Counted from the stretch's first letter, positions 1 through 38,625 are shown. The stretch: 40,314 nt of DNA from a virus (IMGVR_UViG_2563366990_000017:1-40314); one strand, 5' to 3'. The notes: generated by a model from the letters alone, not told the origin. A program made the numbers and translations.

Positions 1-1158
1 ATGCTCACCGTTAAGCAGATTGAAGCAGCAAAGCCGAAAGAAAAACCATATCGCCTTCTCGATGGTAATGGCCTGTACCTTTATGTCCCTGTGTCAGGGA
101 AAAAGGTATGGCAGCTTCGCTACAAGATTGACGGTAAGGAGAAAATCCTGACTGTCGGAAAATATCCGCTTATGACTTTGCAGGAAGCAAGGGATAAGGC
201 ATGGACCGCAAGAAAAGACATCTCGGTTGGCATCGATCCGGTAAAGGCGAAAAAGGCTTCGTCTAACAACAATTCCTTTAGCGCCATTTACAAGGAATGG
301 TACGAGCACAAGAAGCAAGTCTGGTCTGTAGGGTATGCGACTGAACTTGCAAAAATGTTTGATGACGACATTTTACCTATCATCGGCGGCCTTGAAATTC
401 AGGATATTGAGCCGATGCAACTGCTGGAAGTAATCCGCAGATTTGAAGATCGCGGTGCAATGGAGCGAGCCAACAAAGCACGAAGAAGATGCGGCGAGGT
501 TTTCCGTTACGCTATTGTCACCGGAAGGGCTAAATATAACCCGGCACCTGACCTTGCTGACGCCATGAAGGGATACCGCAAGAAGAACTTCCCGTTTCTT
601 CCTGCAGACCAGATCCCGGCATTTAACAAAGCACTGGCAACATTTTCAGGAAGTATCGTATCGCTCATTGCGACCAAAGTTTTACGCTACACAGCCCTCA
701 GAACAAAAGAGCTTCGTTCCATGCTATGGAAGAACGTCGATTTTGAAAACAGGATTATCACCATCGACGCCAATGTGATGAAGGGACGCAAGATTCATGT
801 GGTTCCGATGTCGGACCAGGTGGTTGAACTTCTCACTACGCTAAGCTCCATCACTAAACCAGTATCAGAGTTTGTTTTTGCCGGACGCAACGATAAGAAA
901 AAGCCAATCTGCGAGAACGCGGTGCTACTTGTGATCAAACAAATCGGCTATGAAGGTCTGGAAAGCGGTCACGGATTCAGGCATGAATTCAGCACGATTA
1001 TGAACGAGCACGAATGGCCTGCTGATGCTATTGAAGTGCAACTGGCACATGCCAACGGCGGATCTGTGCGCGGGATTTACAACCATGCACAGTATCTCGA
1101 TAAGCGCAGAGAAATGATGCAATGGTGGGCGGACTGGATTGATGAAAAGGTGGAGTGA
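1..1158 (+). CDS. int: Tyrosine integrase, P4/IntS-like
   Basis: 385-aa ORF with ATG at 1 and TGA at 1156-1158. N-terminus MLTVKQIEAAKPKEKPYRLLDGNGLYLYV is typical of P4-family integrases; C-terminal half has the R..HxxR..Y catalytic pattern (HGFRHEF, RGIYNHAQY). Identity is from recalled similarity. Confidence 0.9.
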   Translation: MLTVKQIEAAKPKEKPYRLLDGNGLYLYVPVSGKKVWQLRYKIDGKEKILTVGKYPLMTLQEARDKAWTARKDISVGIDPVKAKKASSNNNSFSAIYKEWYEHKKQVWSVGYATELAKMFDDDILPIIGGLEIQDIEPMQLLEVIRRFEDRGAMERANKARRRCGEVFRYAIVTGRAKYNPAPDLADAMKGYRKKNFPFLPADQIPAFNKALATFSGSIVSLIATKVLRYTALRTKELRSMLWKNVDFENRIITIDANVMKGRKIHVVPMSDQVVELLTTLSSITKPVSEFVFAGRNDKKKPICENAVLLVIKQIGYEGLESGHGFRHEFSTIMNEHEWPADAIEVQLAHANGGSVRGIYNHAQYLDKRREMMQWWADWIDEKVE

Positions 1159-1311
1159 TCCGCCTTAACAACTATCGAATATCACAAAGCCTTGTAATCC
1201 AGTGCAAAGCTTTGTTTGTCTCAGTTTTGTCTCATCAACCATAGCAAGTCATCGATCGATTGAGACTTGGATGATAGACTTCATGCCTTTGATTATTAGC
1301 TGACAAAAGAA

Positions 1312-1503
1312 ATGTTAAAGCTATTTGCAAAGTACACCTCTATTGGTGTGCTGAACACCCTTTTACACTGGGTGTTTTTTGGTGTTTGTATCCATGCAGC
1401 GCATACAAATCAAGCTATGGCGAACTTCGCAGGTTTCGTTGTGGCTATGAGTTTTAGCTTCTTCGCGAATGCAAAATTCACATTCAAAGCATCGACTTAT
1501 TGA
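1312..1503 (+). pseudogene. gtrA: Truncated gtrA (bactoprenol-linked glucose flippase), N-terminal ~62 codons only
   Basis: MLKLFAKYTSIGVLNTLLHWVFFGVCIHAAHTNQAMANFAGFVVAMSFSFFANAKFTFKAST matches the N-terminal half of phage GtrA (~120 aa full length), then a stop and unrelated AT-rich DNA. No gtrB or gtrC follows. Confidence 0.7.
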
Positions 1504-1599
1504 TCATTTGATAGCATATCCTCTACAGCATTATACGACATAAAATATAATGGAACTGTATTTGTAATTGATTTTAGTAAGAAATGCGAGTGAGAAAAT

Positions 1600-1630
1600 A
1601 AACCTAGTGATAATAATTAACACTAGGTTT
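1600..1630 (-). terminator. Rho-independent terminator downstream of tailspike (possibly bidirectional)
   Basis: Perfect 10-bp inverted repeat aaacctagtg / cactaggttt with an 11-nt loop, directly after the tailspike stop. U-tract on the minus transcript (attttctc), T-rich on plus as well. Confidence 0.6.
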
Positions 1631-1640
1631 ATTATATTTA

Positions 1641-3569
1641 TCAATTCGATAGAGTAACTGAAAGATGAGAGCCAGCTATAACAGTTAATGTATTCCCAGC
1701 CCTGTTATCTATGGTAAAAGCTCCATTAATGAAATCAGTAGAAACTGAGGCAACTACATTTAAAGTAACACTTCCATTAACATCAGGAAGAGTGAATTGC
1801 ATAATATTGCTGCCATTTGGAAGTATAGTACCACTTGGCGCAGTAATTCCTATTACTTGCGTCGTGCTTCCAGCACCACCAAGGTAAGAAATGTTTATAT
1901 TTATTGAAATTCTACTACCTTTAGCGATTGTCATCTGCAACTGATTTATATTTGAACCTATTGCTACTATCTTGTTAGAAGATACAAAATCATTTTTTAT
2001 TGAAAAAACAGGTGTAGCAACACCGATGACTGGTACGTTTGAAAGCTTAACAGGCCTTGGAAGTGATAAAGCCTCCCCTGCTCCTGAGTATGAAAAGTCT
2101 GATATTGAACAATTACCACCATCGGTGCCAGAAAACAATATTCCAGAGGTGTGTGAAGAGTCTGTGCTTATATCAGAAAAATGAATATTTGAAGAACCAT
2201 TACCAACAGTTGCTACAACGTGTCCTGTATTAGTTGTAAACTTCATACCAATAACATCAACTCCAGATATATTATTGCCAATGGCAAAACACACCCCACC
2301 TCCCCCCTTGCAGTAGGTTATCTCACCGCTAAATTTTGCATGACACAATCTCTCGATAGTGGCGTTGTTAAACTTAACCCTACCTCCTATGACTGTATTA
2401 ACATTAATTTCTCTACAATGAGTTGTATTTCCCTCTCCAAAATACATAGCAAATCCAGTATTTGAGTTATTTCCTATGAATCCACCATTGACAGTTAACA
2501 CATATATATCAGAGACATCAAATGTTCTTTCGAAATTATCTATTGTGCAATCGGTAAAATGCCAACCCTCATTATAATAAGGGCCACCGGTTGCAGTACT
2601 ATAAATGCCAATTCCAACAGTATCAGTAGCCGATGTCGCCCCAAATACAATGCTCTTATTACAAGCCAACTCTACTGTTTTCCCTGATGAAACAATCCCA
2701 TTTACGGTATAAAACATGCAGGAATCAATAAATATTTGACGAACTGCTTTTTTTAACAAAAGCGCATATGTAATCATTGAAGATGATACATGAACACCGT
2801 AAAGTCTTATCTGTTTAATATAGTCTTCATTGCTAGGTGTGTCGCTATCACCTTCAGCCTCTAAGAATGCACTTGCCGTTCCTGTAACAATGCAGCTGCC
2901 GCCCCAAATTGTTAATCCGATATTTTTACCATTATACTTAAATATAGGAGAACTACCTGTAGAAGCTGTTAACTTTGATCCGCCAAGATAAATAACCCTG
3001 CCATCAGGTATATTTATTGTTCTTTCAATAAGGTAGTCGGTAGGTTCCATATATACAATTTCACAATCATCAATTGCCATCTGAATAGCCTCGGTTATGT
3101 CTGAGGACTGTGAAATATACATTTCTGGTGTTACATACTTTATTGAATATTTAATTGCATTCTCAATTGTACCATATTTATCTATACCTATTAATGATGC
3201 TCCTGATGTGCTTGAAAGTCTTTGCTCCAGCTGATCAGGGTCATACTTCAGCACATTAGGAAAATAGAACTGCTGCGCACCATATGCATCATAAACAGCC
3301 ATAGAATGGCCTTGCACGGTAACGAATTTGGCAATCTGTCCGTTATATACTGGATACCCAGCGGCATTGATGACGATTGGCTGTGCAACAGGAACGTGAG
3401 AACCATCTTCGTTCTCTACATAAACCTGAATTTGGTTTTCAGGATTTACCGGGTCAGTGTCAATTTTACCGATATAAATTTTTCCATTGGCTACGGCTTT
3501 AAAAGAACGCGCCATAGTGAAGAGTTGCGAAGGCATGCTCACTACAACATTGGCTGTAATGTCTGTCAT
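1641..3569 (-). CDS. Tailspike protein (P22 gp9-like head-binding domain plus divergent beta-helix receptor domain)
   Basis: 642 aa with ATG at 3569 and GGAG RBS. N-terminal ~110 aa ([11 protein letters not shown]...[22 protein letters not shown]...[12 protein letters not shown]...NVLKYDPDQ) closely resembles the P22 tailspike head-binding domain. The rest is AT-rich, N/S/T/G/I-rich repeats typical of a right-handed beta-helix. Confidence 0.85.
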
Positions 3570-3625
3570 TTAATTTGCTCCAGATACAAGGAATCGCCGC
3601 AGCATGGCTACGGTGAATTTTGGGC

Positions 3626-3650
3626 ATAAAAAAACCCAGCCGAAGCTGGG
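3626..3650 (-). terminator. Rho-independent terminator between the ant operon and tailspike
   Basis: On the minus strand: cccagc-ttcg-gctggg hairpin followed by ttttttt. Confidence 0.55.
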
Positions 3651-3669
3651 TCGTTGAGTTGGTTATCTG

Positions 3670-4005
3670 TCAGTAGTTATGTACTGAAGGAGGTAATTCT
3701 TTATTCTTAAGTCTCATCCATGCGGAAAGATTCGTTGGTCCGTCTGGCTCATTAATATCAACATCTCGTGTATGGTTGATTAAAACATCTCTCGCCATTC
3801 CGATAACATACGAGAACTCATGACCGTAGTCGTAGCATCTGCCGGAATAGTTCGATTGAATTTGTTTTAATGCCGGATACAGTTCACGGAATAATGCCTG
3901 TGAACGGTTGGCATAATCCCATAGCCATACAAGGCTGTTTGCTTCTTTTGCAGAAAGCTCGTTTGCTTTCTTCTCTTGTTTGCCGATAAACTCGCCTTCA
4001 AGCAC
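3670..4005 (-). CDS. Hypothetical protein (111 aa)
   Basis: ORF begins 15 nt after the ant stop but with a GTG start (4005-4003) and a weak RBS. No recognised domain. Confidence 0.4.
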
Positions 4006-4020
4006 TACCCTGTGGATGTA

Positions 4021-4548
4021 CTATACGGCCAGCGGGATTTGTTCAATTGAAAGTTCATCAATGCTGTCAATACCAAAACGCTGATGAACCATATTGTATG
4101 CATCGTCATAGCGAAGTCCTTTCTTTCCTACCAGCATGTTTACTGCATCGCGTAGCGGCGTTCTTTCCTCAACAGTGGTTTTCTTGCCTTTCACATACTC
4201 GCCATGTTTGCGAATTGAAGGTAGAACTTCTGCTGTTACCCACTTGCGGAATTTGTGCGGGACCGAACCTTTATTGACAGCATCGCGGCAGCGCAGAACC
4301 AATGTATACATACCTGATTCGCTAACAATGCTTAGATTCTGCTCACCACCAAGGGTGTAACTTAAAGTTACTCCCTTTTCATCGTCATCAAGTGCAGTAA
4401 TCGCCTTGCGTGAGTTAGTCAGGGTTAAAGCATCACAAACATCTTTTGCTACAAACCACGGCTCACCGCATTTGTTGATGACGCGGATTTCACTGTCGCC
4501 GAATTTGAAGATGGTGAAATCGTTTTGTGCCTTTGCTATACTTTTCAT
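4021..4548 (-). CDS. ant: Antirepressor, Bro-N domain protein
   Basis: Start moved to the internal ATG at 4548 ([24 protein letters not shown]..., a typical Bro-N start) with an AGGAAA RBS. Sits directly downstream of arc as in the P22 immI operon. Confidence 0.75.
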
Positions 4549-4616
4549 GTCAATATTTCCTAATCCGATTTGTTGATACCGAAGCCCTGACTGTTCCCGC
4601 AGTTGGGGCTTCAACT

Positions 4617-4778
4617 TTACGCGCCAATGCGCCCTTCCTTCTTAAAGCTTTCCATTACTCTCTGATAAATCTCAGAGTTAACAGACCGACCATTCTCTTC
4701 CGCCACCTTGCGTACCAAATCCAATACTTCTTTAGGCCACCGCAAATTGAACTGCGGCATCTTGCTCATTCCTTTCAT
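4617..4778 (-). CDS. arc: Arc repressor (ribbon-helix-helix)
   Basis: 53-aa product [53 protein letters not shown] is near-identical to P22 Arc. Start set to ATG at 4778; the ORF-track N-terminal extension is rejected. Confidence 0.9.
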
Positions 4779-4792
4779 ATTCACCTCACAAT

Positions 4793-4813
4793 ATAGGTCC
4801 ACCGTGGACCTAT
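4793..4813. promoter_or_regulatory. Mnt operator-like palindrome (Omnt)
   Basis: ataggtccaccgtggacctat, a near-perfect 21-bp palindrome in the arc-mnt intergenic region, matching the recalled P22 mnt operator core AGGTCCAC.GTGGACCT. Confidence 0.6.
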
Positions 4814-4820
4814 TGAGAAT

Positions 4821-4841
4821 ATAGTAGAGTGCTTCTATCAT
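4821..4841. promoter_or_regulatory. Arc operator-like site (Oarc)
   Basis: atagtagagtgcttctatcat between arc and mnt, matching the recalled P22 arc operator sequence. Confidence 0.6.
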
Positions 4842-4868
4842 GTCAATACACTAACTTGGAGTGATGGC

Positions 4869-5123
4869 ATGGCTAGAGATGATCCGCACTTTAACTTCCG
4901 CATGCCTTTGGAAGTAAGAGAAAAATTAAAATACAGAGCAGAGTCAAATGGTAGATCAATGAACTCAGAATTGTTGCAAATCGTCCAAGATGCTCTATCG
5001 AGACCATCTCCTGTAAAAGGTTATCGCAATGAAGCTGAACGATTAGCCGAGATGCAGGCTGAACAGTTCAAGTCTGTGGTATTTGAGACACTTAAAAACA
5101 TGTATGGCAAGGATGCAAAATGA
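4869..5123 (+). CDS. mnt: Mnt repressor
   Basis: MARDDPHFNFRMPLEVREKLKYRAESNGRSMNSELLQIVQDAL... closely resembles P22 Mnt. Divergent from arc across the operator region. Confidence 0.9.
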   Translation: MARDDPHFNFRMPLEVREKLKYRAESNGRSMNSELLQIVQDALSRPSPVKGYRNEAERLAEMQAEQFKSVVFETLKNMYGKDAK

Positions 5124-5701
5124 TCGATTACAACCCAGCAAAAAAAGAAATCATCGCAGCTAAAAAGTGCCTAGAGCAGATGAAATCATCTACAAACCAT
5201 GATGATTTTGAAATGCACTGGCGAGAATGTCTTGGGCATATAGAAAAGTCTTTCAGTAAGTTGCTCTGTGCAACAAAGCCGGTTAGTGGAAAATTTAGCA
5301 GCCACTTCAACCAAAAGTTCATGCTTAGAAAAACAGACAAAACACTTGCTTACCTTCACCAAGCAAGAAATGCTGATCATCATTCCACTATGGAAATCTC
5401 AAAACTTGAACCTCCTTATACTACTCTTGGGGCATTTCCGGGAGCAAGAAGCCATTATATTAAAGAGTTAATCATTGATTCAACAGGGAAAATAGCAAAA
5501 TACGAAGGCGACCCTATGATAGTTGAGTTTCATCCAGCAACAACTATGCCTATAACCGTAAGAAACCAAGGCAAAGATTATCCACCTCCAACAGAACATC
5601 TTGGCGAAAAGCTTGTTGATATACATCCATCTGTTCTTGCCTATCTCGGTATACAATTTTATGAAAAATGGATAGATGAGTCGCGTGCAATGTTTAGATA
5701 G
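5120..5701 (+). CDS. Hypothetical protein (193 aa), AT-rich accessory gene
   Basis: ATG at 5120 overlaps the mnt stop (ATGA), so likely co-transcribed with mnt. Markedly AT-rich compared with flanking phage genes. No recognisable motif. Confidence 0.6.
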   Translation: MIDYNPAKKEIIAAKKCLEQMKSSTNHDDFEMHWRECLGHIEKSFSKLLCATKPVSGKFSSHFNQKFMLRKTDKTLAYLHQARNADHHSTMEISKLEPPYTTLGAFPGARSHYIKELIIDSTGKIAKYEGDPMIVEFHPATTMPITVRNQGKDYPPPTEHLGEKLVDIHPSVLAYLGIQFYEKWIDESRAMFR

Positions 5702-5918
5702 TTATTTTTGATAATTTCAAGTATTTCCTCTTGACTTTGATTTACCCAAACGTGATCACACTCATGAAACCAGATTATGCTTCCTGTTTCGCCTTGTGCA
5801 ATATAGGTGATCATGTTTTCATTAACAATTATTACTGAGTTATCATGTGCGCAATTTAGTTTTATCAATTCGCATATCCTATCGTGACAAAGTAACTAGA
5901 AAAACTAAAGAGGTTGGT

Positions 5919-6413
5919 GTGTCTGATTCTATGAGTTACGCTGTGCTAGTTGCCGCAACTCTATTTATGGGGATAGGGTTGCAGATTGCGTGGTTCTTTT
6001 TTTCTAGTTTTATTAAACGCAAAAGAATTGAATCAAGGATATCTGAGATTTCTATTGCTATAGGGAAAAATGCTGAAAATCCAGAGAATGAGGCCTGCGC
6101 ACTGAATTACCTTAAAGAAAAGTTTTCCCCTGAAAAATTTGAAAATAGAATTACTGATGCTCTTGGATTGGTAATATCAGTAATTCATATGCCACTAAGT
6201 TTGCTGATAACAGTGTGGTACTTCGCCATGATCGCCGGAAGAATATTTGGTTTCATGAATATAGAGCCTGTAGTTCTTTGGGTTCCAATGATACTGCAAC
6301 TGTTGTTAAGCGTTGCTATCTTTATTTTTTCTGTTTTTATAAAAATTGTCTTTGGAAGATACCCCGGAGAAGCTAAGGGATTTAATAAAGAATTCATAAA
6401 AACTATAAAATAA
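5919..6413 (+). CDS. Multi-pass inner membrane protein, possible SieA-like superinfection exclusion protein
   Basis: ORF-track start 5847 is GTG with no RBS. Preferred start is GTG at 5919, 5 nt after AAAGAGG (alternative ATG at 5931). Product has about 4 hydrophobic helices ([22 protein letters not shown]; [18 protein letters not shown]; [28 protein letters not shown]). AT-rich. Convergent with gp16, in the position sieA occupies in P22. Confidence 0.55.
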
Positions 6414-6435
6414 ATGCCGTCCTTGGCTTACAGTG

Positions 6436-8277
6436 CTACTGCCGGGTCGCTTCGTTAGCTAAGAGCGGGCGCACGGCAGTAGCAGCCTGATTTAGCGCTC
6501 TTTCATAAGCTGGCGTTCCAGCTTTAGTGTTTGCCAGACGTAAGAGCGCATTCCTTGCTGCTTTGGACTCATACAAACGCATCATTGCACCAAAACCAGC
6601 CTCAAGCCCCATTGATACTCCAAGAGTCGCAGTTGCGCCAATCGTCCTTATCCTGTTGGCTTGTGATTGCCCCGTCTGAGTTACTACATTTGCGGTGTCT
6701 GACCTTGCTGTTTGCTGTAGAACTTCATGAAGAGCATCAAGCTCTTTCATGTGCTTTCCAGAAAAAATAGTGTTGTAAATTTCACCGCCTGACTGAGATT
6801 TCAGCTTATTAACTTCAGTGATGAACTTGGCTGGAGAGTCACCGGCCTTTTCCGCTATTTTGCTGACGTAAGCTGCACGCATAGCATCTTTCCCTTTATC
6901 ATCCAGTGCGCTCCAGATTCGTTTCACGTCAGATGGTTTTCTGCTTAATACAACGGTATTTATAAGTTCAGGACTGGCTTCACTGCTTGCCTTGTTGAGT
7001 TTGTTAGCAATGTTTTTATTAAGCACCTTATTATAAACGTTTGCATAATCGGAATTTGCTTTAAGGTATTTTGCTGCGTCTGACGCACCAAGGTTTTTTG
7101 CAACTGCGTTACGAAGGTCTTTTGACATTGCATTCTCTACCATATTGGTAGCTGCTTTTGCCTGGTTGGGGAAGACCATAGCATCTCCCTGAACATTAGA
7201 TCTAAATGCTGTTCTGTGCTGACGCAAGAGATCAAACGTAACATCCAAATCAGTTGCAGGGTTAGCTAATTCTTCACGTAGGTTACGCAAGGATGTAAGC
7301 AGGCTTTGATTGGCTGAAGTCCCAAGTCGTTCCTGTCTTGCGATCGCTGCATTCAGAGCATTCATGGTATTTGTGGTATCAACTGCGGCATTACCCATTT
7401 TATTGGTGACGTCATTGATAACAGCGCCAGCAGCATCCTTCCGCCCCCTTAACGTGATGGTCAGAGATTTCACCACATCATCCGGGTTGTACTCACCAAA
7501 ACGGTCAAAATAATTACTTACCAACTTACTACGCGTTGCATATTGCTCCGCTCGCTTTGAGCCTGTCCCGAGCAAAGCCCCCTCGGCATCCTGAGTAAGG
7601 CCGCGAGTGAAAGCATTTTTCGGCGGGATAACATCAGATGTCATTGGTGTCACGCCCATCGATTCTGATGTGGCAATTTTCTTCGCCACTTCTGGCGCAA
7701 TATCACCTTTTATAGCCGTTATTCCACGCCCTATTCCCTTTGCTGCTGCGGAAAGAACACCCTGAGCGGCAAGGTTAACTCCGGCATTTTTAGCTGCGTT
7801 TTGTGCGAAATCGCCTTTCTGATTTGCGGCCTCTGCCAGTGATCCAATAGCCATGCTTCCTGCCGTTCCAACTCCTGGAACTAAATACCCACCAATTGTT
7901 TCTCCAGCTTGAGCGTAGGGGTCTGTCGGTCTGTCTACTGGACGATAAACATCATCCAAAACCTTGGGGCCACCAAGCCCCTGACTGATTGCATTAATCA
8001 GACTTGCGCCACCCTGCAATACGTCAAATGGTATGTTTACCAGACCACGACCAGCCTGTTCTGCAATTTGCCCTGCACTTTGACCACCAGTGAGCCAATC
8101 GCCAGCTTGTTGCATCAATGATGGTTCTTCACGTGCTGGTTCATTATTGGCCTGATTAACTGTTTGTTGCTGAACAGCCTGACCAGCAAAATACTCATCA
8201 ATGGCGGTGCCAATATCTTCCGTGCTCGTACCATCAGGGAAGGTAAATGTCTTACCGTTTGCAGTTACTTTCATCAT
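6436..8277 (-). CDS. DNA ejection / internal virion protein, gp16-like
   Basis: 613 aa, Ala/Gly/Gln-rich. ATG overlaps the gp20 stop (ATGATGA). Position and size match P22 gene 16. Confidence 0.8.
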
Positions 8278-30342: not shown

Positions 30343-30350
30343 GGAATGTC

Positions 30351-31531: not shown

Positions 31532-31562
31532 GGCTCTTAAAAATTTAGCCCTGAAGAAGGGC
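31532..31562 (+). promoter_or_regulatory. nutL (boxA and boxB)
   Basis: ggctcttaaaaa (boxA-like) followed by gccctgaagaagggc, matching the recalled lambda nutL boxB hairpin. Confidence 0.7.
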
Positions 31563-31734
31563 AGCATTCAAAGCAGAAAGCTTTGGGGTGTGGTGAAGGG
31601 TTCATGGATGGGAATATGTCGCACGTAAAGCGGCGAGGCCTGCGGAACTATTGCCGAATTGAAGTCGGCCGAAGCAGGTCGAAATGGGTCTCCCACCTAC
31701 CACACCACCAAAGCTAACTGACAGGAGAATCCAG

Positions 31735-32067
31735 ATGGATGCACAAGCACGCCGCCGCGAACGTCGCGCAGAGAAACAGGCTCAATGGAAAGCAGCAAAT
31801 CCCCTGTTGGTTGGGGTAAGTGCAAAACCAGTTAACCGCCCAATTCTCTCGCTGAATCGCAAACCGAAATCACGAGTAGAAAGCGCACTGAATCCGATAG
31901 ACCTTACAGTGCTGGCTGAATACCACGAACAGATTGAAAGCAACCTGCAACGTATTGAACGCAAGAATCAGCGCACATGGTACAGCAAGCCACGCAGTGA
32001 AATGGGTGTGACCTGTTCAGGCCGCCAGAAGCAACGCGGAAAATCAATTCCAGCTTATTACGATTGA
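31735..32067 (+). CDS. N: Antiterminator N
   Basis: Start set to ATG at 31735 with an AGGAGA RBS. MDAQARRRERRAEKQAQWKAANPLLVGVSAKPVNRPILSLNRKPKSRVESALNPIDLTVLAEY... is near-identical to lambda N, including the arginine-rich motif. Confidence 0.9.
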   Translation: MDAQARRRERRAEKQAQWKAANPLLVGVSAKPVNRPILSLNRKPKSRVESALNPIDLTVLAEYHEQIESNLQRIERKNQRTWYSKPRSEMGVTCSGRQKQRGKSIPAYYD

Positions 32068-32075: not shown

Positions 32076-32525
32076 ATGGAAGAACAAGCAAACAAGATTC
32101 TCGTAGAACTACTGCAAAAAGCCAGCAATGGAATAGACGCGGCTGTTTCATTCAGCCAAGCGCAGATTCCTGATGTTGTTCATCAGTTGCTGCTATGGAA
32201 TATGGTTGACAGTCTGATTAAAACATTAATAGCCATTCTAACAATCCCACTGGTTTTCTGGTTTATGAAGAAGCAGTGCCAAAGAGTTGAGACAGGTAAA
32301 ATCGGTGATGAAGGATACTCATGGGAGAGGGGAAATCCCAAATACAGGCCGACAATGGTTTGGGATAGCAAAGGAGATATTAACCTTCTTATCATGCCAT
32401 TGGTTGGAGTTTTGACTCTGTGGGGGATTTTTATTATTGGTGTAGTAACCAATATGACTTGGTTAAAAATTTGGCTGGCCCCAAAGCTTTACCTTATCGA
32501 ATATGCAGCATCATTGGTTAAGTAA
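32076..32525 (+). CDS. Membrane protein, SieB-like superinfection exclusion candidate
   Basis: 149 aa with hydrophobic helices (LIKTLIAILTIPLVFWFM; LLIMPLVGVLTLWGIFIIGVV). Directly downstream of N, where sieB lies in lambda and P22. AT-rich. Confidence 0.5.
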   Translation: MEEQANKILVELLQKASNGIDAAVSFSQAQIPDVVHQLLLWNMVDSLIKTLIAILTIPLVFWFMKKQCQRVETGKIGDEGYSWERGNPKYRPTMVWDSKGDINLLIMPLVGVLTLWGIFIIGVVTNMTWLKIWLAPKLYLIEYAASLVK

Positions 32526-32529
32526 TTTC

Positions 32530-32556
32530 AGGCCGCATAGTCGGCCTTTATTTTTG
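32530..32556 (+). terminator. Rho-independent terminator
   Basis: aggccg-catagt-cggcct hairpin followed by ttatttttgg, directly after the SieB-like stop. Confidence 0.6.
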
Positions 32557-32578
32557 GCATAAACAATATGGGGTAAAA

Positions 32579-32905
32579 ATGAAAGTTTTAATGGTTTATG
32601 AAAATGTTCCAGAGTCGACTGAAATCTATATTTTTGATGCCAATGAAGATGAAGTTAACGATTTGAAATTGTCTCACGGCAATTACACAAATGCTAATTG
32701 TGATGAAAGTATCGAAAAAGCACTATCGCGTGTTCTTGTCAGAATTAGTGATCCAGAACATTGTGATGATGATTGGCTTTCTTATTGTGGAGCGGTAAAA
32801 ACTGATGCAGGAAAATGGAGTAAAAGTAAAGTTGATAACTCAACTCCAATCATTATGAAAGATAGTGATATTGAAATGGTAATAATAACCGGAATGATTA
32901 TGTAG
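32579..32905 (+). CDS. Hypothetical acidic protein (108 aa), AT-rich moron
   Basis: ATG at 32579. Very AT-rich, D/E-rich product (DANEDEVNDL, DPEHCDDDW, KDSDIEM). Bracketed by terminators at 32530-32556 and 33012-33037. Confidence 0.6.
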   Translation: MKVLMVYENVPESTEIYIFDANEDEVNDLKLSHGNYTNANCDESIEKALSRVLVRISDPEHCDDDWLSYCGAVKTDAGKWSKSKVDNSTPIIMKDSDIEMVIITGMIM

Positions 32906-33011
32906 GCTGAGAATAAGCACTGTGTATTCATTCCAACGAGTGAATACACGGAGCAATGTCGCTCGTAACCAAACAGGAGCCGACTTGTTCTGATTATTGG
33001 AAATCTTCTTT

Positions 33012-33037
33012 GCCCTCCAGTGTGAGGGCCTTTTTAT
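33012..33037 (+). terminator. Rho-independent terminator
   Basis: gccctc-cagtgt-gagggc hairpin followed by cttttta. Lies inside the ORF-track N-terminal extension of ORF 32997-33272. Confidence 0.6.
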
Positions 33038-33101
33038 ATGCATACCAATAACGCTTCACTTGAGGCGTTTTCGTTATGCAATCAAACAGAAGGAGCATCC
33101 T

Positions 33102-33272
33102 ATGCAACAGTTCGCTATTGCAGGGGCGGCATCGGTTCGCCCTTTCAACCCGATTTTATCGGTACAGCATTCACGAAAAAACATTTTAACCGGAGCAGAC
33201 TTTAAACAACCTCGCGTTAAGAGCTTGCTGGATCGTCTTGTTGAGTTTCTGAATCAAAAGGTACAGCCATGA
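33102..33272 (+). CDS. cIII: CIII-like protein (FtsH inhibitor candidate)
   Basis: Start set to ATG at 33102 with an AAGGAG RBS 6 nt upstream. 56-aa product MQQFAIAGAASVRP...LLDRLVEFLNQ resembles lambda CIII (MQYAIAG...LIDILNQ). Confidence 0.55.
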   Translation: MQQFAIAGAASVRPFNPILSVQHSRKNILTGADFKQPRVKSLLDRLVEFLNQKVQP

Positions 33273-33433
33273 AAAAACCAACTTACGAAGAACTGGAAGA
33301 AGCCCTGAAAGAACTTAGAAGAATGGCTTTCGCCCGACGCACTAACTCTCACAACTGCGGCCCATTTCAGTACTCTGATTTATGCGAGGACATCATTGAG
33401 GTAACTCAACTGATTAAGGTCGTTAAGCAATGA
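33269..33433 (+). CDS. Small hypothetical protein (54 aa)
   Basis: Not in the ORF track. ATG overlaps the cIII stop (ATGA). Followed by another overlapping small ORF (33430-33537, 35 aa). Confidence 0.35.
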   Translation: MKKPTYEELEEALKELRRMAFARRTNSHNCGPFQYSDLCEDIIEVTQLIKVVKQ

Positions 33434-33514
33434 GCATTGCGGATACATGGTCAGACGAAGAATTCATTCGTCAGATGAACAAAATGCTCAATCAGCACAA
33501 AGAACAGGAGAAAG

Positions 33515-33826
33515 ATGATGATTCTGACTCTGAATGATAAGCGTGAAATATCGCAAATAATCGCAAGTTTTACTGATGAAGATTACGAGCGAATCAACAG
33601 TGAAGTTGATCGCCTCTGCAAACGTTGCGACCCAATAAGCGAAATGCTTCGCTTATATAAACCAGATGAACACACTAAGGACGCTATCGACTGGCTGGAA
33701 GATGATGACTGTAACTATCAGGAAAAAGCCGCTGAATGGTTCTGGGATGCAATAACCGAAAGAGTTAAGGCTGAATATGCCTTCGCAATATTCAAACGCA
33801 GACATATTTATGGAGAAGCTGCATGA
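33515..33826 (+). CDS. Hypothetical early protein (103 aa)
   Basis: Acidic protein (DEDYERINSEVDRL, DWLEDDDCNYQE). Stop overlaps the RecT start (ATGA). Confidence 0.5.
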   Translation: MMILTLNDKREISQIIASFTDEDYERINSEVDRLCKRCDPISEMLRLYKPDEHTKDAIDWLEDDDCNYQEKAAEWFWDAITERVKAEYAFAIFKRRHIYGEAA

Positions 33827-34725
33827 GCAATATCGTTGAATTCGTTAAACAGCAGGAGCAGTTATTCTGCGGAGCATTGACTGAACAGACGGTGACATGG
33901 GCTAAGGAAAGCCAGTTTGCAATTCAGTATTTCCAGAAAAACGATTACCTGGCTAAAACAGCACTGGCAAATCCAACCAGCGCACAGAACGCCATCATCA
34001 ATGTTGCGGCGATCGGCATCACCTTAAACCCGGCCAGCAAACTGGCTTATCTGGTTCCTCGCGACGGCATGGTGTGCCTTGATATCAGTTACATGGGATT
34101 ACTTCATCTTGCGCAATCGACAGGATCAATTAAGTGGGGGCAATGCAAACTGGTGTACTCAAACGACACCTATGAATCAAATGGCCTTGATTCAGCACCA
34201 ACCCACAAATACAACGCATTTGGTGAGCGAGGCTCTATTGTTGGAGGTTATTGCACGGTTAAAACAGCAGATGGTGACTACCTGACTGAAGAAATGAGTC
34301 TGGCAGAAATTAAAGCTGTGGAAGCAACGAGCAAGGCTAAGAATGGACCGTGGAAGACATTCTGGGAAGAGATGGCGCGTAAAACCATAGTTAAACGCGC
34401 CAGCAAATACTGGCCTAAAGCCCAGCGACTGGATAATGCCATTCACCTGCTTAACGAAGATGAAGGTATGCATCAGGAACCAGTTATGCCGCACAAATCA
34501 GAGGAAGATATCCGCGAAGATGAACGGAAACGCCAGCAGGAAATAACTGATAAAGCACAACTTCTTTGTGATGAAATGGCTCAGGCTGAAAACATGGATG
34601 ATTTGAAGAGATATTTTGCAGAAGCATATCGCCTGACATCTGGAATGAAATTGCAGCAGAACATACAAGCCATTTACATAGAATGCAAAGCGAAACTGGA
34701 GGTTGCCAGTGAGCAAACTATATGA
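33823..34725 (+). CDS. recT: RecT-family single-strand annealing recombinase
   Basis: 300 aa. ...KNGPWKTFWEEMARKTIVKRASKYWP... matches the RecT signature (Rac RecT has NGPWVTHWEEMAKKTAIRRLFKYLP). Confidence 0.85.
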   Translation: MSNIVEFVKQQEQLFCGALTEQTVTWAKESQFAIQYFQKNDYLAKTALANPTSAQNAIINVAAIGITLNPASKLAYLVPRDGMVCLDISYMGLLHLAQSTGSIKWGQCKLVYSNDTYESNGLDSAPTHKYNAFGERGSIVGGYCTVKTADGDYLTEEMSLAEIKAVEATSKAKNGPWKTFWEEMARKTIVKRASKYWPKAQRLDNAIHLLNEDEGMHQEPVMPHKSEEDIREDERKRQQEITDKAQLLCDEMAQAENMDDLKRYFAEAYRLTSGMKLQQNIQAIYIECKAKLEVASEQTI

Positions 34726-35191
34726 AATAGCCAATGAATACGCAAAATTGATGGATTCAGATTTAGAGCCAGAGATGATTGCTGACACAATAGAAGGCAT
34801 GGAAGGAGAATTTACCGATAAAATAGAGCAACTTCTCGCCATTATTAAAAATGAATCTGGTTATGCTGAACGCCTCAAGGAAGAGGCAAAGTCACTAAAT
34901 GAACGAGCAGCAGTAATTCAAAATAAGATTGATAGCATTATGGCGTATATAGCGTCATCGCTTGAAATGGTTGGCAAGAAAAAGATTAGAGCAGGTATTC
35001 ACCAGGTAACAATCCGCAAACCGTCAGAAACTGTAGAAATCATCGACTCAAGCGCCATTCCTCCTGAATACGTTGAGTTCGAAACGACAATTAAAGCCGA
35101 CAAACTGGCAATCAAACACCAACTAAAAGCAGGAATAAATATCCCAGGTGCTCAACTCAAAGTTGGGAAACCTTCACTTCTTATCAAATAA
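34709..35191 (+). CDS. Hypothetical protein, possibly siphovirus Gp157-like, RecT-associated
   Basis: No in-frame ATG near the 5' end. Start taken as GTG at 34709, 7 nt after GGAGG (track uses TTG at 34703). Overlaps the RecT stop. Confidence 0.45.
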   Translation: MSKLYEIANEYAKLMDSDLEPEMIADTIEGMEGEFTDKIEQLLAIIKNESGYAERLKEEAKSLNERAAVIQNKIDSIMAYIASSLEMVGKKKIRAGIHQVTIRKPSETVEIIDSSAIPPEYVEFETTIKADKLAIKHQLKAGINIPGAQLKVGKPSLLIK

Positions 35192-35202
35192 CGGTATCGC
35201 CT

Positions 35203-35517
35203 ATGAAAAAGACTCCATGGGAGAAATGGGAAGTCGATTTCTTGCGCGAGGTAGCGGCGACAATGCCAGTTGAAGTTATCGCAGAAAAACTGGAAAGGAC
35301 TGAAAAAGCAGTAATGGCGAAAGCAACAAGGATTGGCGCTGACATTGTTAGCCGACTTCGTGGAAGACGCTGGACAAGAGCCGAAGTATCACTTTTCGGT
35401 AAGTTCTCCGCAGAAGAAATAGCAATTGCAACCTGCCGCTCAATTTATTCAGTAAGAGCTATGCGATACAAGCTAAAAAAACTCGATGAAGAAAGAGCAG
35501 GCATACGAATAAATTAA
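35203..35517 (+). CDS. Hypothetical protein (104 aa)
   Basis: ATG at 35203. Basic protein, no recognised domain. Confidence 0.5.
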
Positions 35518-35533
35518 CAAAGAGGAATTTACC

Positions 35534-35698
35534 ATGAGAGGACTTGCATACAATCCCGGCATTCTTCCGGCAGAAATGATTATTCGCCAACGCGTAAAGC
35601 CAATGCCATCGAGAGAGGAATTGCTTAAGAGAAATTCTTTTCCATCAGTGAATCAAAACAAATATCTGAATGCGATGTGGCGGAGTGGGAAGAAATGA
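35534..35698 (+). CDS. Small hypothetical protein (54 aa)
   Basis: Not in the ORF track. AGAGGA RBS 7 nt upstream; stop overlaps the next gene start (AAATGA). Confidence 0.3.
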
Positions 35699-36264
35699 AA
35701 CAAATGTCACTAATTGAGATGGATGGATTTCTGAAAGGTAAATGCATCCCACGAGATTTAAAGGTTAACGAAACAAACGCTGAATATCTTGTCCGTAAGT
35801 TCGGTGAACTTGAATCAAAACTGGAAACGGCGTTGCGGGAGTGTCGTTCTGCTGGAATCACGATTGATAACCTTGAGGCCAAGTGCGCGGCGCTGGCGGC
35901 GGAGAATGCGGGAATAAAGTCTGCAATTCCAGAATCACGGGATATTGAGGATGACAATGACAATATGGATGACGTATCTCTCGCGGAAGACTTCGGGTTC
36001 AATCATGCAATAGAACGGATGAGGAGACAGATACCTGAAACGCCAACCACTGATGCTTTCCTGGCTGAAGTCCGGGCGCAGGGGGTGGATGCTGCTATAG
36101 AAGCTGCAAAAAATCTGGTGGCCCAAGAATATGAGTATAAGGATTTCAAAGCGGCGCAGAGTGATTGCTGTATGCACCCTGGTTCAGACCTGGTAGGGAA
36201 GGTTGAAATGACTGAGTGGTTAGTTGACTTTGCTGCCCAGCTTCGCAAAGGAGGCAGCCAGTGA
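35695..36264 (+). CDS. Hypothetical early protein with coiled-coil region
   Basis: Start set to ATG at 35695 ([12 protein letters not shown]...); track start 35677 is GTG. Stop overlaps the next gene start. Confidence 0.5.
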
Positions 36265-37325
36265 GCAAGATTGATTATCAGGCACTGCGTGAGTTAGCAA
36301 AACAGGCAACACAAGGAGAATGGGTTGCATTTATTTCGACGGGTACTGGTACGTATGCGGTGCATACGCCCGGTGATAAACGATGTGAAGACGTTATCAA
36401 ATGGACCGGCTTTGATGGACAGAAAAACGCAGAGAACAACGCTCGTTATATCGCAGCTTTCAACCCTGAAGTAGTACAGGCACTGCTGGATGAGAACGAA
36501 AGCATGTGCCGCGACCTCATTGCTCGCAATGGTGAGATTGAAGGGCTTCGAAAACTGGTTGCTGAGCTTGAAGAGACAAAATCAAAACTCAACGAGCAGC
36601 GTGAATATTATGAAGGTGTTATCTCGGATGGGAGTAAGCGTATTGCTGAACTGGAGAAAAGCGAAGAGCAGCTCATTAACGAGCGTGACCATGCTGAGTC
36701 TGCTTTAGCTGATATGTATTTTGCAGCAACCGGGGATAGGCCGGAGTGGAGTAACTGTTTCAGTTTTTCAGATGCCGTCGATGCCGTGGTTGACAGAATT
36801 GCTGATTTAGAAGCTAAACAGCCATCGCCAGTAGTGCCGGATAATACATCAGAGTCTCTTGCTTATGCTTACAAAGAGCTTACGCCTGAGATTATGCGCG
36901 GTCATATCGCTGTATTCGAGCGATATGGAATAGCCCCAAACGATAGCTCCACCACAATTCAGGCACTGCGAATCGCGCTGGATGGCATAGAGCGGAGCGA
37001 CGCCATGCTTCATGGTGCCGAACCTGTAAGCCAAACTTACAAGTTGAACCAGCTATCGGGCAACTCTCCGGTAACTCCGGATGGTTGGATAAGCTGTAGT
37101 GAGCGAATGCCAGAAATGGGAGAGCGACAATGCTATGTGTTAGCGGCTGACTTTAAAAACAACTACCCACCAAACATCCCCAACACTCAGGTCGGCGTAT
37201 ATGGCGACTGGTTTAATGATGGCAATCCCACTTGGGATGACGGTGATGGCGAAGACCTGTATCTCAAAGAGGTAACCCACTGGATGCCGCTACCAGAACC
37301 GCCGCAGGAGGTTAACCGTGGCTAA
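36261..37325 (+). CDS. Ead/Ea22-like protein with DUF551-like C-terminus
   Basis: GTG start at 36261 with an AAGGAGG RBS. N-terminus [21 protein letters not shown] is Ea22-like, central coiled coil, C-terminal GWIS...VTHWMPLPEPP motif typical of DUF551. Confidence 0.55.
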   Translation: MSKIDYQALRELAKQATQGEWVAFISTGTGTYAVHTPGDKRCEDVIKWTGFDGQKNAENNARYIAAFNPEVVQALLDENESMCRDLIARNGEIEGLRKLVAELEETKSKLNEQREYYEGVISDGSKRIAELEKSEEQLINERDHAESALADMYFAATGDRPEWSNCFSFSDAVDAVVDRIADLEAKQPSPVVPDNTSESLAYAYKELTPEIMRGHIAVFERYGIAPNDSSTTIQALRIALDGIERSDAMLHGAEPVSQTYKLNQLSGNSPVTPDGWISCSERMPEMGERQCYVLAADFKNNYPPNIPNTQVGVYGDWFNDGNPTWDDGDGEDLYLKEVTHWMPLPEPPQEVNRG

Positions 37326-37602
37326 CCTGCAACTGGCAGTTAACGGTGAATATTTCGACCAGATGAAGTCAGGCGAGAAAACGGAAGAGTATCGCCTGTG
37401 TAATGACTACTGGAATAAGCGCCTCGTTAACCGTAAGTATGACCGCCTGATTATCACAAAGGGATATCCGAAGCGCGACGATTCCAGCCGCAGAATTGAC
37501 GTCCCGTATGACGGATATGAAATCAAGACAATCACACATCCGCACTTCGGCGATAAACCGGTAAAGGTGTTCGCGATAAAGGTGAATATCGGCAATGAAT
37601 AA
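37318..37602 (+). CDS. Hypothetical protein (94 aa)
   Basis: GTG start at 37318, 8 nt after AGGAGG. Overlaps the upstream stop. Confidence 0.5.
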   Translation: MANLQLAVNGEYFDQMKSGEKTEEYRLCNDYWNKRLVNRKYDRLIITKGYPKRDDSSRRIDVPYDGYEIKTITHPHFGDKPVKVFAIKVNIGNE

Positions 37603-37674
37603 CAATCCTCGCATTCGCGGGGATTTCTTTTATCTGAACTCGCTACGGCGAGTTTTGTTTTATGGAGATGATAA

Positions 37675-37842
37675 ATGCACTTCCGAGTCACAGGAGAATG
37701 GAATGGAGAGCCATTCAACAGAGTTATCGAAGCAGAGAACATCAACGACTGCTATGACCACTGGATGCTATGGGCACAGATAGCACATGCAGACGTAACC
37801 AATATTCGAATTGAAGAACTGAAAGAACACCAAGCCGCCTGA
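37675..37842 (+). CDS. Small hypothetical protein (55 aa)
   Basis: Not in the ORF track. ATG at 37675 with a GGAG RBS 6 nt upstream; stop lies inside the following terminator. Preferred over the overlapping track ORF 37595-37783. Confidence 0.35.
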   Translation: MHFRVTGEWNGEPFNRVIEAENINDCYDHWMLWAQIAHADVTNIRIEELKEHQAA

Positions 37843-37856
37843 TGGCGGTTTTTTAT
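37834..37856 (+). terminator. Rho-independent terminator
   Basis: gccgcc-tgat-ggcgg hairpin followed by ttttttatt. Confidence 0.55.
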
Positions 37857-37868
37857 TGGAGACAAGAA

Positions 37869-38213
37869 ATGTCAGATTTGGCTATGAAGGTTTTGAAATG
37901 GCAATCGACTGGCGATGTCGGCATCAGTAGCGCAACTCTTGCCTCAATCGCATGTGGACTGAAAAAGAATATCTATGGTCATAGCTTCGGTGCTCCACAT
38001 GACGCAGCCGATTTCAGACGATGCGTTGCACTTGTTGAGCAGATTCCAGAAATCAGAGATTCATTCGACAAGGTTGCAAAGCGCGTTCCGGCATTCAAAG
38101 GAATCCTCAACGAATGGGATTCACTCGTTGCTCTGTTGAAGTCTGAAATGAAGACGTACGGGAACAAAGCACCAGAGACTTACAGAAGAATCAGCGAGCT
38201 ACGCAAGGACTAA
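37869..38213 (+). CDS. Hypothetical protein (114 aa)
   Basis: Start set to ATG at 37869 (MSDLAMKVLKW...) with a GGAG RBS. Followed by a weak hairpin terminator at about 38217-38243. Confidence 0.5.
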   Translation: MSDLAMKVLKWQSTGDVGISSATLASIACGLKKNIYGHSFGAPHDAADFRRCVALVEQIPEIRDSFDKVAKRVPAFKGILNEWDSLVALLKSEMKTYGNKAPETYRRISELRKD

Positions 38214-38301
38214 CCCGCCTCACACTCGATGAGGCATTTTCATTTATCAAGATATCCAGACCTACCATCGCCGCATCAATACGGTTTTTTTATTACCTGA
38301 T

Positions 38302-38317
38302 TTGCAGGTTCGATTCC
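38302..38317 (+). other. tRNA T-arm-like fragment just upstream of the excisionase gene
   Basis: ttgcaggttcgattcc reads as a T-stem/T-loop (GCAGG-TTCGATT-CC) with no upstream D or anticodon arm. Joined to 38611-38625 it would form a continuous tRNA 3' half. Confidence 0.45.
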
Positions 38318-38336
38318 ATATTCGGAGATAGCACTC

Positions 38337-38537
38337 ATGCAACACGAACTACAACCTGATTCACTGGTTGATTTGAAATTCATCATGGCTGATACTGGCT
38401 TTGGTAAAACCTTCATCTATGACCGGATTAAGTCCGGCGACCTGCCAAAAGCCAAAGTTATCCACGGGCGAGCAAGATGGTTATATCGTGACCATTGTGA
38501 ATTCAAAAATAAGCTCTTAAGCCGCGCCAATGGGTAA
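38337..38537 (+). CDS. xis: AlpA-family excisionase / DNA-binding protein
   Basis: 66 aa, LVDLKFIMADTGFGKTFIYDRIKSGDLPKAKVIHGRARWLYRDHCEF fits the AlpA/Xis winged-helix pattern. Last gene of the plus-strand early operon at the prophage end. Confidence 0.7.
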   Translation: MQHELQPDSLVDLKFIMADTGFGKTFIYDRIKSGDLPKAKVIHGRARWLYRDHCEFKNKLLSRANG

Positions 38538-38610
38538 AATAGCGGGTAAAATATTTCTCACATCTAAAAAACACCATTCCAATCAATCCCCTGTCGCTTC
38601 AAGTAGATGT

Positions 38611-38625
38611 CTGCAGGGGACACCA
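38611..38625 (+). other. Putative attR core: tRNA 3' end (acceptor stem plus CCA)
   Basis: ctgcaggggacacca reads as T-stem 3' strand, acceptor strand AGGGGAC, discriminator A and CCA. From memory this matches the 3' end of E. coli tRNA-Arg argW, the usual target of IntS-type integrases. Confidence 0.5.

Follow-up and report, generated by a model that had tools for sequence, protein, structure and literature searches.

Does the viral DNA IMGVR_UViG_2563366990_000017:1-40314 (40,314 nucleotides; hereafter the window) carry a true patchwork of modules from different lambdoid phages, and if so, what kind of element do they make up? An earlier note on this DNA had described positions 1-38625 as a module-level mosaic, with a P22-type virion and immI region, lambda-type N, nut, cII, nin and lysis genes, an Sf6-type terminase and a P4-type integrase. 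We consider it highly likely that positions 1-38625 are a P22-like temperate prophage of the genus Lederbergvirus, apparently complete and inserted at argW, the tRNA-Arg gene, in a sucrose-positive E. coli. The combination of modules is new; the type of element and its layout are ordinary.

Mosaic structure and layout of the prophage

The two halves of the window (1-20000 and 20001-40314) were searched by megablast against 50,697 phage records, and the prophage was compared with seven references: lambda (NC_001416), Sf6 (NC_005344), P22 (NC_002371), CUS-3 (CP000711), HK620 (NC_002730), Kapi1 (MT813197) and 683R2 (ON470594). The comparison used per-gene protein identities, nucleotide (nt) identity in 500-bp bins and the coordinates of high-scoring segment pairs (HSPs). 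None of the 50,697 phage records covered 80% of either half. The best match to the left half was Kapi1 (62% covered at 96% identity) and that to the right half was vB_EcoP-683R2 (61% covered at 96.6%); the top matches, Kapi1, phiv205-1, CUS-3, Sf6 and 683R2, all belong to Lederbergvirus. Likewise, none of 5,426 complete E. coli genomes covered 80% of positions 1-7000 or 7001-32000 (at best 79%, for the central 25 kb), and a single genome among them covers 81% of positions 33000-40314. The share of positions 1-38625 matched at 90% nt identity or more was 48% for Kapi1, 36% for CUS-3, 35% for 683R2, 31% for Sf6, 24% for HK620, 12% for lambda and 6% for P22, and the seven references combined account for 72%. 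Each block is 75-100% identical to the block of some described phage, with no single phage as the source for all. A described phage collinear with the whole region at high identity, which the earlier note had named as the observation that would contradict a mosaic, was found in neither the phage nor the complete E. coli collection. Therefore, the mosaic is real; phages of the P22-like group are normally built in this way.

The window begins at the ATG of the integrase gene and ends in host DNA. Leftward genes form one long run (1641-30566), and rightward genes flank it at both ends. The gene order (int, tailspike, ant moron, ejection proteins, tail and head genes, terminase, lysis, Q, nin, replication, cro/cI, N, recombination genes, xis, attR) is canonical among the CUS-3, Sf6 and HK620 prophages. 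The P22-like late operon is complete and syntenic (TerS, TerL, portal, scaffold, coat, gp4, gp10, gp26, gp14, gp7, gp20, gp16, ant moron, tailspike), and every gene in it has a homologue in P22, Sf6 or CUS-3. GC content is about 0.50 in the virion genes and 0.35-0.39 in the tailspike receptor domain, orf193, sieA and the pair orf149/orf108. Compared with their homologues, the virion, lysis, replication and regulatory open reading frames (ORFs) are all full length, so that we take the prophage to be probably functional.

Integration module and prophage boundary

The following features define the ends of the prophage.

1-1158, plus strand: int, IntS-type tyrosine integrase, 99% amino acid (aa) identity to Int of Sf6, CUS-3 and 683R2
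38337-38537, plus strand: xis, recombination directionality factor (RDF) TorI/HkaC, 66 of 66 residues identical to E. coli TorI (PDB 1Z4H)
38611-38625, plus strand: attR core, the 3' end of tRNA-Arg argW and right prophage boundary, 15/16 match to the Sf6/HK620 attP core
39067-40314, minus strand: cscB, host sucrose permease outside the prophage, 100% aa identity to the cscB flank in the 683R2 record, annotated as an MFS transporter in E. coli genomes

The core, CTGCAGGGGACACCA, lies at 38611-38625, 74 bp past xis, with host DNA beyond it. An exact search of the window for the Sf6 and HK620 att core gave no match; with one mismatch, at the host-side base, their attP core ATGGTGTCCCCTGCAG (complementary to the 3' end of argW) was found at 38611-38626 on the plus strand. 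The 74-bp spacing between core and xis is the same in the Kapi1 record, and the csc flank past the core is also carried by the 683R2 record. The argW core followed by this flank places the end of the prophage at 38625, in agreement with the earlier note.

The integrase combines the Pfam domains Arm-DNA-bind_3 (PF13356), Phage_int_M (PF22022) and Phage_integrase (PF00589) and is 98-99% identical (aa) to the Int proteins of Sf6, HK620 and CUS-3. Its designation as P4-type was borne out by full-length homology to P4 Int (BLASTP, 35% identity over 402 columns, E 2e-77) and by the N-terminal arm-binding domain (DUF4102/Arm-DNA-bind_3). The companion claim of an AlpA-type excisionase did not hold. 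The xis product has no match to Pfam Phage_AlpA (PF05930), its sole Pfam hit being a sub-threshold one to HTH_17 (16.9 bits against a cutoff of 27), and BLASTP gave no alignment with P4 Vis; it is identical to TorI and 100% identical to HK620 HkaC and the product of Sf6 gene 18.

As the earlier note had proposed, int and xis stand at opposite ends of the prophage because attP lies between them: the core is 3' of xis, and int is at the other end. This arrangement is not new, being annotated or published for Sf6, HK620, CUS-3 and KplE1. In the records of Sf6 and HK620 the attP core is annotated between int and the TorI-like gene; the CUS-3 prophage record is likewise oriented with int first, and in P4 attP is upstream of int as well. 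The IntS/TorI/argW module is conserved in KplE1, HK620, Sf6 and CUS-3, and experiments with KplE1 and HK620 showed that intS has its own promoter, which overlaps attL, and that transcription of int and of the RDF gene is uncoupled (PMC2951348, PMC3509656).

A 16-bp sequence upstream of xis, TTGCAGGTTCGATTCC (38302-38317, plus strand), is the "attL/attR core" of the CUS-3 GenBank record. We rejected it as the prophage boundary, as the core is downstream of xis in Sf6, HK620 and Kapi1. A homologue of xis is missing from the CUS-3 record, presumably because the record stops at this repeat.

Virion and packaging genes

The structural genes occupy the following intervals.

6436-10412, minus strand: ejection protein genes gp16 (6436-8277), gp20 (8274-9746) and gp7 (9759-10412), compared with P22 and Kapi1
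10387-13132, minus strand: gp14, gp26 (tail needle) and gp10; gp14 is 99% identical to that of Kapi1
13142-20122, minus strand: procapsid and packaging cluster of gp4, orf75, coat, scaffold, portal, TerL and TerS, 95% nt identity to CUS-3 throughout
20125-21154, minus strand: orf80 (DUF2560/HkbM homologue), 95-96% aa identity to all P22-like references, and a gene (20624-21154) with a Pfam KilA-N match

The P22-type virion of the earlier note stands as regards architecture, but the capsid cluster is of the CUS-3 subtype. Portal, scaffold, coat, gp4 and TerS are 95-100% identical (aa) to those of CUS-3 and to P22 only 29-35%. For the coat protein the values are 95% (CUS-3), 29% (P22) and 21% (Sf6), and for the portal 97%, 35% and 53%, respectively, so that the portal, too, is of the CUS-3 and not the P22 type. 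Nor is gp26 P22-like: it is of the Sf6 type, 98% identical to the Sf6 protein vs. 38% for P22. The P22-like label does fit gp10 (93% to P22, 100% to Sf6). The claim of an Sf6-type terminase is correct for one subunit: TerL is of a type common to Sf6, HK620 and CUS-3 (99% aa identity to CUS-3, 96% to Sf6 and HK620, 17% to P22), but TerS is 100% identical to that of CUS-3 vs. 32% to that of Sf6. TerL belongs to the PBSX family (TIGR01547), and by analogy with P22/Sf6-type phages we infer headful packaging.

The TerL gene itself (18270-19685, minus strand) is 96% identical to its Sf6/HK620 counterparts at the aa level but only 87-88% identical as DNA. The pattern suggests that the nt differences are mostly synonymous, i.e., that the protein may be under strong purifying selection.

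Among the ejection proteins, gp16 is 76% identical (aa) to P22 and gp7 is 91% identical to Kapi1. Both sieA (92% aa) and gp16 (76%), which are adjacent to gp20, are closest to Salmonella phage P22 and not to E. coli phages. The KilA-N gene occupies the position of rha in P22. Its sole match in the references is a weak one in HK620 (26% aa), and none of the seven matches positions 20598-21133 at 80% nt identity or more.

Immunity, antitermination and early genes

29938-30342, minus strand: cII (29938-30231) and nutR (boxB 30311-30325, boxA 30335-30342); CII is 99% identical (aa) to that of lambda
30351-31337, no single strand: immunity region with cro (30351-30566, minus strand), the operator OR and cI (30684-31337, plus strand), 99% nt identity to 683R2, Louie, 720R6 and Dewey
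31532-32067, plus strand: nutL (boxA-like 31532-31539, boxB 31548-31562) and N (31735-32067); N is 95% identical to Sf6 and 89% to lambda, Pfam N36 at E 4.5e-25
32076-38213, plus strand: early-left genes, a patchwork of orf149, orf108, the cIII/kil region, a RecT module (33515-35517), an Ea22/DUF551 protein and small ea genes

The earlier note had suggested that the immunity region may differ from those of both lambda and P22, which proved correct. Cro is 28% identical (aa) to lambda Cro and 21% to P22 Cro, and the N-terminal DNA-binding domain of cI cannot be aligned to lambda cI and resembles neither lambda nor P22. The closest relatives after the 683R2 group are phi458 (98%) and the Stx phages Nil2, 2851 and Stx2 II (about 93%). 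Inspection by eye of the operator intergenic regions revealed TAC-N5-GTA-like dyads, which are not lambda operators. However, the description of a non-lambda repressor/cro pair applies to Cro and to the DNA-binding domain of cI but not to the last 135 or so residues of cI, the cleavage and oligomerisation domain, which are near-identical to those of lambda. As judged from these alignments, cI is a natural chimera of a non-lambda DNA-binding domain and a lambda C-terminal domain.

The lambda-type N, nut and cII were confirmed. Both boxB elements match lambda exactly, as does boxA of nutR, with 7 of 8 positions matching in that of nutL. The cII and nutR segment (29898-30344) is 98% identical (nt) to lambda 38247-38693, and the nutL and N segment (31497-31991) is 86% identical to lambda; N starts with MDAQARRRERRAEKQ, an arginine-rich boxB-binding peptide. 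Further into the early-left region, the RecT block is 92-93% identical (nt) to Kapi1 and 683R2.

Just 3' of N, at 32076-32905 on the plus strand, lie orf149 (predicted membrane helices, phrog_3054) and orf108 (phrog_4658), two low-GC genes of unknown function in the place taken in lambda and P22 by accessory genes of the sieB and ral types. The ORF at 32579-32905 has no homologue in the seven references.

Lysis, late antitermination, nin and replication genes

21500-22747, minus strand: lysis cassette S, R and Rz, with Rz1 embedded (21541-21747); S is 99% and R 97% identical (aa) to lambda
22990-23145, minus strand: tRNA-Thr and tRNA-Asn, downstream of Q (ARAGORN, Rfam)
23209-23727, minus strand: late antiterminator Q of the Sf6/CUS-3 type, 98% aa identity to the product of Sf6 gene 59, Pfam PF06530
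23718-26363, minus strand: nin region with NinI, NinH, NinG, NinF, orf135, NinE and NinB, lambda HSPs of 94-97% nt identity
25343-25750, minus strand: orf135, between NinF and NinE, phrog_1511, function unknown, at the position of P22 ninX
27441-29766, minus strand: replication genes for a DnaB-like helicase and an O-like initiator, 99% nt identity to HK620 (99% and 98% aa, respectively)

Segments with 93-98% nt identity to lambda comprise S, R and the 5' end of Rz (21720-22988), NinI, NinH, NinG and part of NinF (23722-25316), NinE, and NinB. Of the near-lambda lysis genes that had been reported, S and R are thus as described, but Rz and Rz1 are lambda-like only over the first 250 or so nt of Rz. 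The identity stops at 21720 within Rz, the rest of which is of the Kapi1/HK620 type; the whole protein is 62% identical to lambda Rz, 97% to Kapi1 and 91% to HK620, and the lipobox of Rz1 is MVAGC. The nin genes divide in a comparable manner. NinB, NinG, NinH and NinI are 95-100% identical (aa) to both lambda and Sf6, but NinE (79% to lambda) and NinF, also put forward as near-lambda, more closely resemble the alleles of HK620 and P22. The region lacks NinC and NinD, and orf135 has no homologue in the seven references.

Q had been suspected of differing from both lambda and P22, and it is indeed only 15% identical (global alignment) to either. The Sf6 record labels gene 59 as similar to Q of phage 21. 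The tRNA pair, the only tRNA genes found by ARAGORN in the window, is also present in Sf6, where it too is annotated as similar to phage 21. The replication helicase is unlike lambda P.

The immI region

3670-4548, minus strand: ant, antirepressor gene with Bro-N and P22_AR_C domains, broken by an in-frame TAG (4021-4023), Pfam matches on separate halves
4550-4616, plus strand: sar antisense RNA, Rfam RF00262 at 71.6 bits against a gathering score of 43
4617-4778, minus strand: arc, 98% aa identity to P22 Arc, Pfam Arc
4813-4846, both strands: overlapping divergent Pant/Pmnt promoter-like sites, consensus matches 11/12 and 10/12
4869-5123, plus strand: mnt, 76% aa identity to P22 Mnt, Pfam Arc and Repressor_Mnt
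5919-6413, plus strand: sieA superinfection exclusion gene, 92% aa identity to P22 SieA, phrog_7745

The immI region is P22-type in its Arc, Mnt, sar RNA and divergent promoters, and its control region is 91% identical (nt) to P22 14589-15106; however, the in-frame TAG means that it is not intact. Ant is of the Kapi1 type with a P22-like C-terminal domain, and 311 of 315 residues are identical to Kapi1 Ant, which has GAG where TAG stands here. The P22-type control elements arc, mnt and sar therefore regulate a broken ant.

The tailspike and the gtrA remnant

1312-1503, plus strand: gtrA remnant, the N-terminal 62 of about 120 residues, matching profile positions 1-62 of 120 of the GtrA-like phrog_2224
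1641-3569, minus strand: tailspike gene, head-binding domain 3231-3569, receptor-binding domain 1641-3230

Residues 1-113 of the tailspike match Pfam Head_binding (PF09008, E 2.8e-67) as well as the N-termini of the P22 and Sf6 tailspikes in PDB, and this head-binding domain is all that the protein has in common with the seven references. The receptor-binding domain has a GC content of 36.7%. By megablast it had no match in the complete E. coli genomes (5,426), and the phage records (50,697) yielded no close one at the DNA level (at best 70% identity over 19% of its length); an E. coli protein cluster with 98% aa identity does exist. Its absence at the DNA level from both collections suggests a rare host-surface specificity.

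Related receptor domains (42-90% aa) occur fused to another N-terminal adaptor, Pfam Tail_spike_N, in Citrobacter and metagenomic proteins. The presence of such a domain on different adaptors, as seen in sequence, indicates domain shuffling between phage types.

The gtrA remnant is 85-91% identical (nt) to gtrA of SfII, SfV and HF4s. It lies downstream of int, and gtrB and gtrC are missing; the truncated gene is a leftover of an O-antigen glucosylation operon like those of SfII, SfV and CPS-53.

Relationship to described phages

The closest counterpart of the capsid is CUS-3, a K1-specific argW prophage. It shares the int-first orientation, the segment from gp4 to TerS (95% nt, 95-100% aa), Q (98%) and Int (99%), but its own tailspike receptor domain is an endosialidase, its nin region contains roi/rus, and it also differs in the ant moron, ejection proteins, gp26, replication, immunity and recombination genes. 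Kapi1 is the best single match, resembling the prophage in the virion genes from gp7 to TerL, Ant, lysis genes, RecT module, xis and att core spacing. In contrast, Kapi1 has a lambda/P22-type Q (624 nt), an intact ant and other cI/cro, replication, nin, TerS, gp16/gp20 and tailspike genes.

Sf6 has in common with the prophage Int (99%), Xis (100%), TerL (96%), gp10 (100%), gp26 (98%), Q (98%) with its tRNA pair, N (95%), the helicase (99%), NinB/G/H/I, S/R and the attP between xis and int. However, its coat (21%), portal (53%) and TerS (32%) are different, it lacks an ant moron, and it carries oac, a 434-type immunity region and an Erf recombination module. The group of 683R2, Louie, Dewey and 720R6 matches from cro through cI to the operator OL (99% nt) and in N, cII, Q and the RecT module; the flank of 683R2 is also cscB, so its integration locus is the same. 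These phages differ in having an Sf6-type capsid cluster and another tailspike, nin content and O gene. HK620 and KplE1 (CPS-53) possess the same IntS/TorI/argW module, and HK620 also provides close matches for O and helicase (98-99%) and Rz (91%), although the capsid of HK620 is Sf6-type, its immI is degraded and its Q is lambda-type, and KplE1 is a remnant without cI or virion genes.

P22 itself shares virion synteny, the tailspike head-binding domain, immI control (arc 98%, sar, mnt 76%), sieA (92%), gp16 (76%) and gp10 (93%), but not the coat, portal and terminase (17-35%), Int/xis, attP position, Q, N, immunity or replication genes. The likeness to lambda is confined to S, R, NinB/G/H/I and cII (95-100% aa), NinE (79%), the exact boxB elements, N (89%) and the last 135 or so residues of cI; the whole virion, Int/xis, Q, P, cro, the cI DNA-binding domain and the operators are different. 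By these identities, Sf6 and 683R2 are at least as close as lambda to the "lambda-type" modules (N 95% vs. 89%; NinB, NinI, S and R 97-100%). Put most simply, the comparisons describe a CUS-3-type head combined with a regulatory backbone like that of Sf6, HK620 and 683R2, and not a hybrid of lambda and P22. Published surveys describe the early operons of P22-like phages as highly mosaic through exchange with other lambdoid phages, count "ten types in sixteen genomes" for ant morons and report that procapsid clusters are inherited as blocks (PMC2629481); the ejection proteins are also highly diverse and mosaic, only the tailspike receptor domain being more so (PMC10883804).

Alternative explanations

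Several observations weigh against a complete prophage of this type. About 28% of it has no match at 90% nt identity or more in the seven references, including the tailspike receptor-binding domain, orf193, the segment from sieA through gp16 to gp20, the KilA-N gene and several small ORFs. Full-length identity of the gp20 product to the gp20 of any reference (P22, Sf6, CUS-3) does not exceed 43%. Both attL and argW lie beyond the start of the window, so that the left junction and the integration site are deduced from attR, the csc flank and homologues. Finally, the amber codon in ant and the gtrA remnant indicate that some decay has taken place. This decay, together with the loss of gtrBC and an IntS/TorI module shared with the cryptic prophage KplE1, might point to a defective remnant like KplE1 that is unable to form phage. 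We regard this as unlikely, as ant and gtr are accessory (HK620 and Sf6 have no working immI) and all of the P22 essentials are full length: terminase, portal, scaffold, coat, gp4/10/26/14/7/20/16, tailspike, lysis, Q, replication, cI/cro and N. Measured to attR, the prophage is about 38.8 kb long, a size that also fits the genomes of Sf6 and HK620.

A copy of an already described phage (CUS-3, Kapi1, Sf6 or 683R2) is very improbable. Single blocks are 95-100% identical to those phages, but the best records stop at 62% and 61% of the two halves, Kapi1 accounts for just 48% of positions 1-38625 at 90% nt identity or more, and the left 7 kb and central 25 kb are not covered to 80% by any complete E. 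coli genome. There is similarly a very small chance that the prophage arose from a direct and recent cross of a lambda-like phage with a P22-like one, an event that would be unusual. The segments with 93-98% nt identity to lambda and an Arc 98% identical (aa) to P22 could be taken that way; however, every lambda-like segment is matched at least as closely by Sf6 or 683R2, both of them P22-like phages, and such alleles have long been described in Sf6 and HK620, according to the annotation of their records. The P22-matching segments are only 73-91% identical (nt), apart from a few HSPs shorter than 260 bp, and the capsid genes are 29-35% identical (aa) to P22. The abrupt changes of best-matching reference along the window could instead reflect an assembly that joined two prophages, to which we give next to no credence: the gene order is canonical and unbroken, with no essential module duplicated or missing, and Kapi1 bridges the junctions at 9.6-20 kb. 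Furthermore, 683R2 bridges TerS together with neighbouring DNA, portions of the lysis-Q region, the greater part of 27.4-32 kb and the interval from xis to cscB, and E. coli genomes are collinear over 79% of the central 25 kb.

A candidate HEPN-like protein encoded next to mnt

5120-5701, plus strand: orf193, candidate HEPN-like protein, translationally coupled to mnt, start overlapping the mnt stop codon (ATGA), low-GC stretch

Homologues of orf193 in other P22-like prophages are always 3' of mnt in the same fashion, and a homologue with 47% identity adjoins the tailspike gene at another prophage end. No match to orf193 was found in Pfam (E <= 10), NCBIfam or PADLOC, by tblastn in the phage collection, by a sequence profile search of PDB or by Foldseek against BFVD. 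PADLOC was run on ten accessory ORFs and gave no hit for any of them. A profile search of 1.84 billion representatives (clusters at 50% identity) recovered at least 1,772 relatives at E <= 1e-3. Seven residues, W34, D73, Y78, A82, R83, H88 and P157, are invariant in 46 diverse members with 24-47% identity, and the residue after R83 was N or D in all eight sequences of one alignment.

An AlphaFold model built from the family alignment (predicted local distance difference test score, pLDDT, 96.3) has helices at residues 5-23, 27-72 and 74-88, a beta domain at 94-154 and a further helix at 170-192. R83-N-x3-H88 lies at the C-terminal end of the third helix (74-88). In HEPN ribonucleases (RNases) the motif Rx4-6H sits where the third helix of a four-helix bundle ends, and R is usually followed by N, D or H (PMC3710099). 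The modelled protein thus has an Rx4-6H motif with a polar residue after R where helix 3 ends, and this agreement with the published HEPN position leads us to propose, tentatively, that orf193 may encode a HEPN-like RNase, possibly a defence gene expressed in the lysogen. Equally speculative is the broader proposal that orf193 is the first noticed member of a large uncharacterised family forming a new branch of HEPN RNases with an inserted beta domain, and that it might act as a lysogen-expressed abortive-infection or exclusion gene within the ant moron. Such a role may be analogous to that of the prophage HEPN defence protein HepS.

Proposed working and significance

The working outlined here is drawn from homologues. 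IntS would integrate the phage at argW and TorI would direct excision, and with attP between int and xis the two genes would come to opposite prophage ends and be transcribed separately. Lysogeny would be held by a cI of the 683R2/Nil2 immunity type, next to a P22-type immI (mnt, arc, sar) whose antirepressor gene appears to be knocked out by its amber codon. Early transcription would depend on a lambda-type N acting at lambda boxB nut sites, and late transcription on the Sf6/CUS-3-type Q. The DNA would then be packaged by a CUS-3-type TerS and an Sf6/CUS-3-type TerL into a CUS-3-type capsid, giving a P22-like, short-tailed virion that would adsorb through a tailspike that combines a rare receptor-binding domain with the conserved head-binding domain of P22. 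The mosaic itself would have arisen by the usual horizontal exchange in the lambdoid gene pool, not by a recent cross of lambda and P22.

Beyond cataloguing, this prophage carries little weight, being one more recombinant of the well-documented P22-like/lambdoid pool. It illustrates known rules: a CUS-3-type procapsid cluster is inherited as a block; early regions, ant moron, ejection proteins and tailspike receptor domain are shuffled; and argW prophages of the IntS/TorI kind split int and xis across attP. Its practical use lies in the corrected module labels, the rare tailspike receptor domain and orf193, a candidate defence gene that is cheaply testable.

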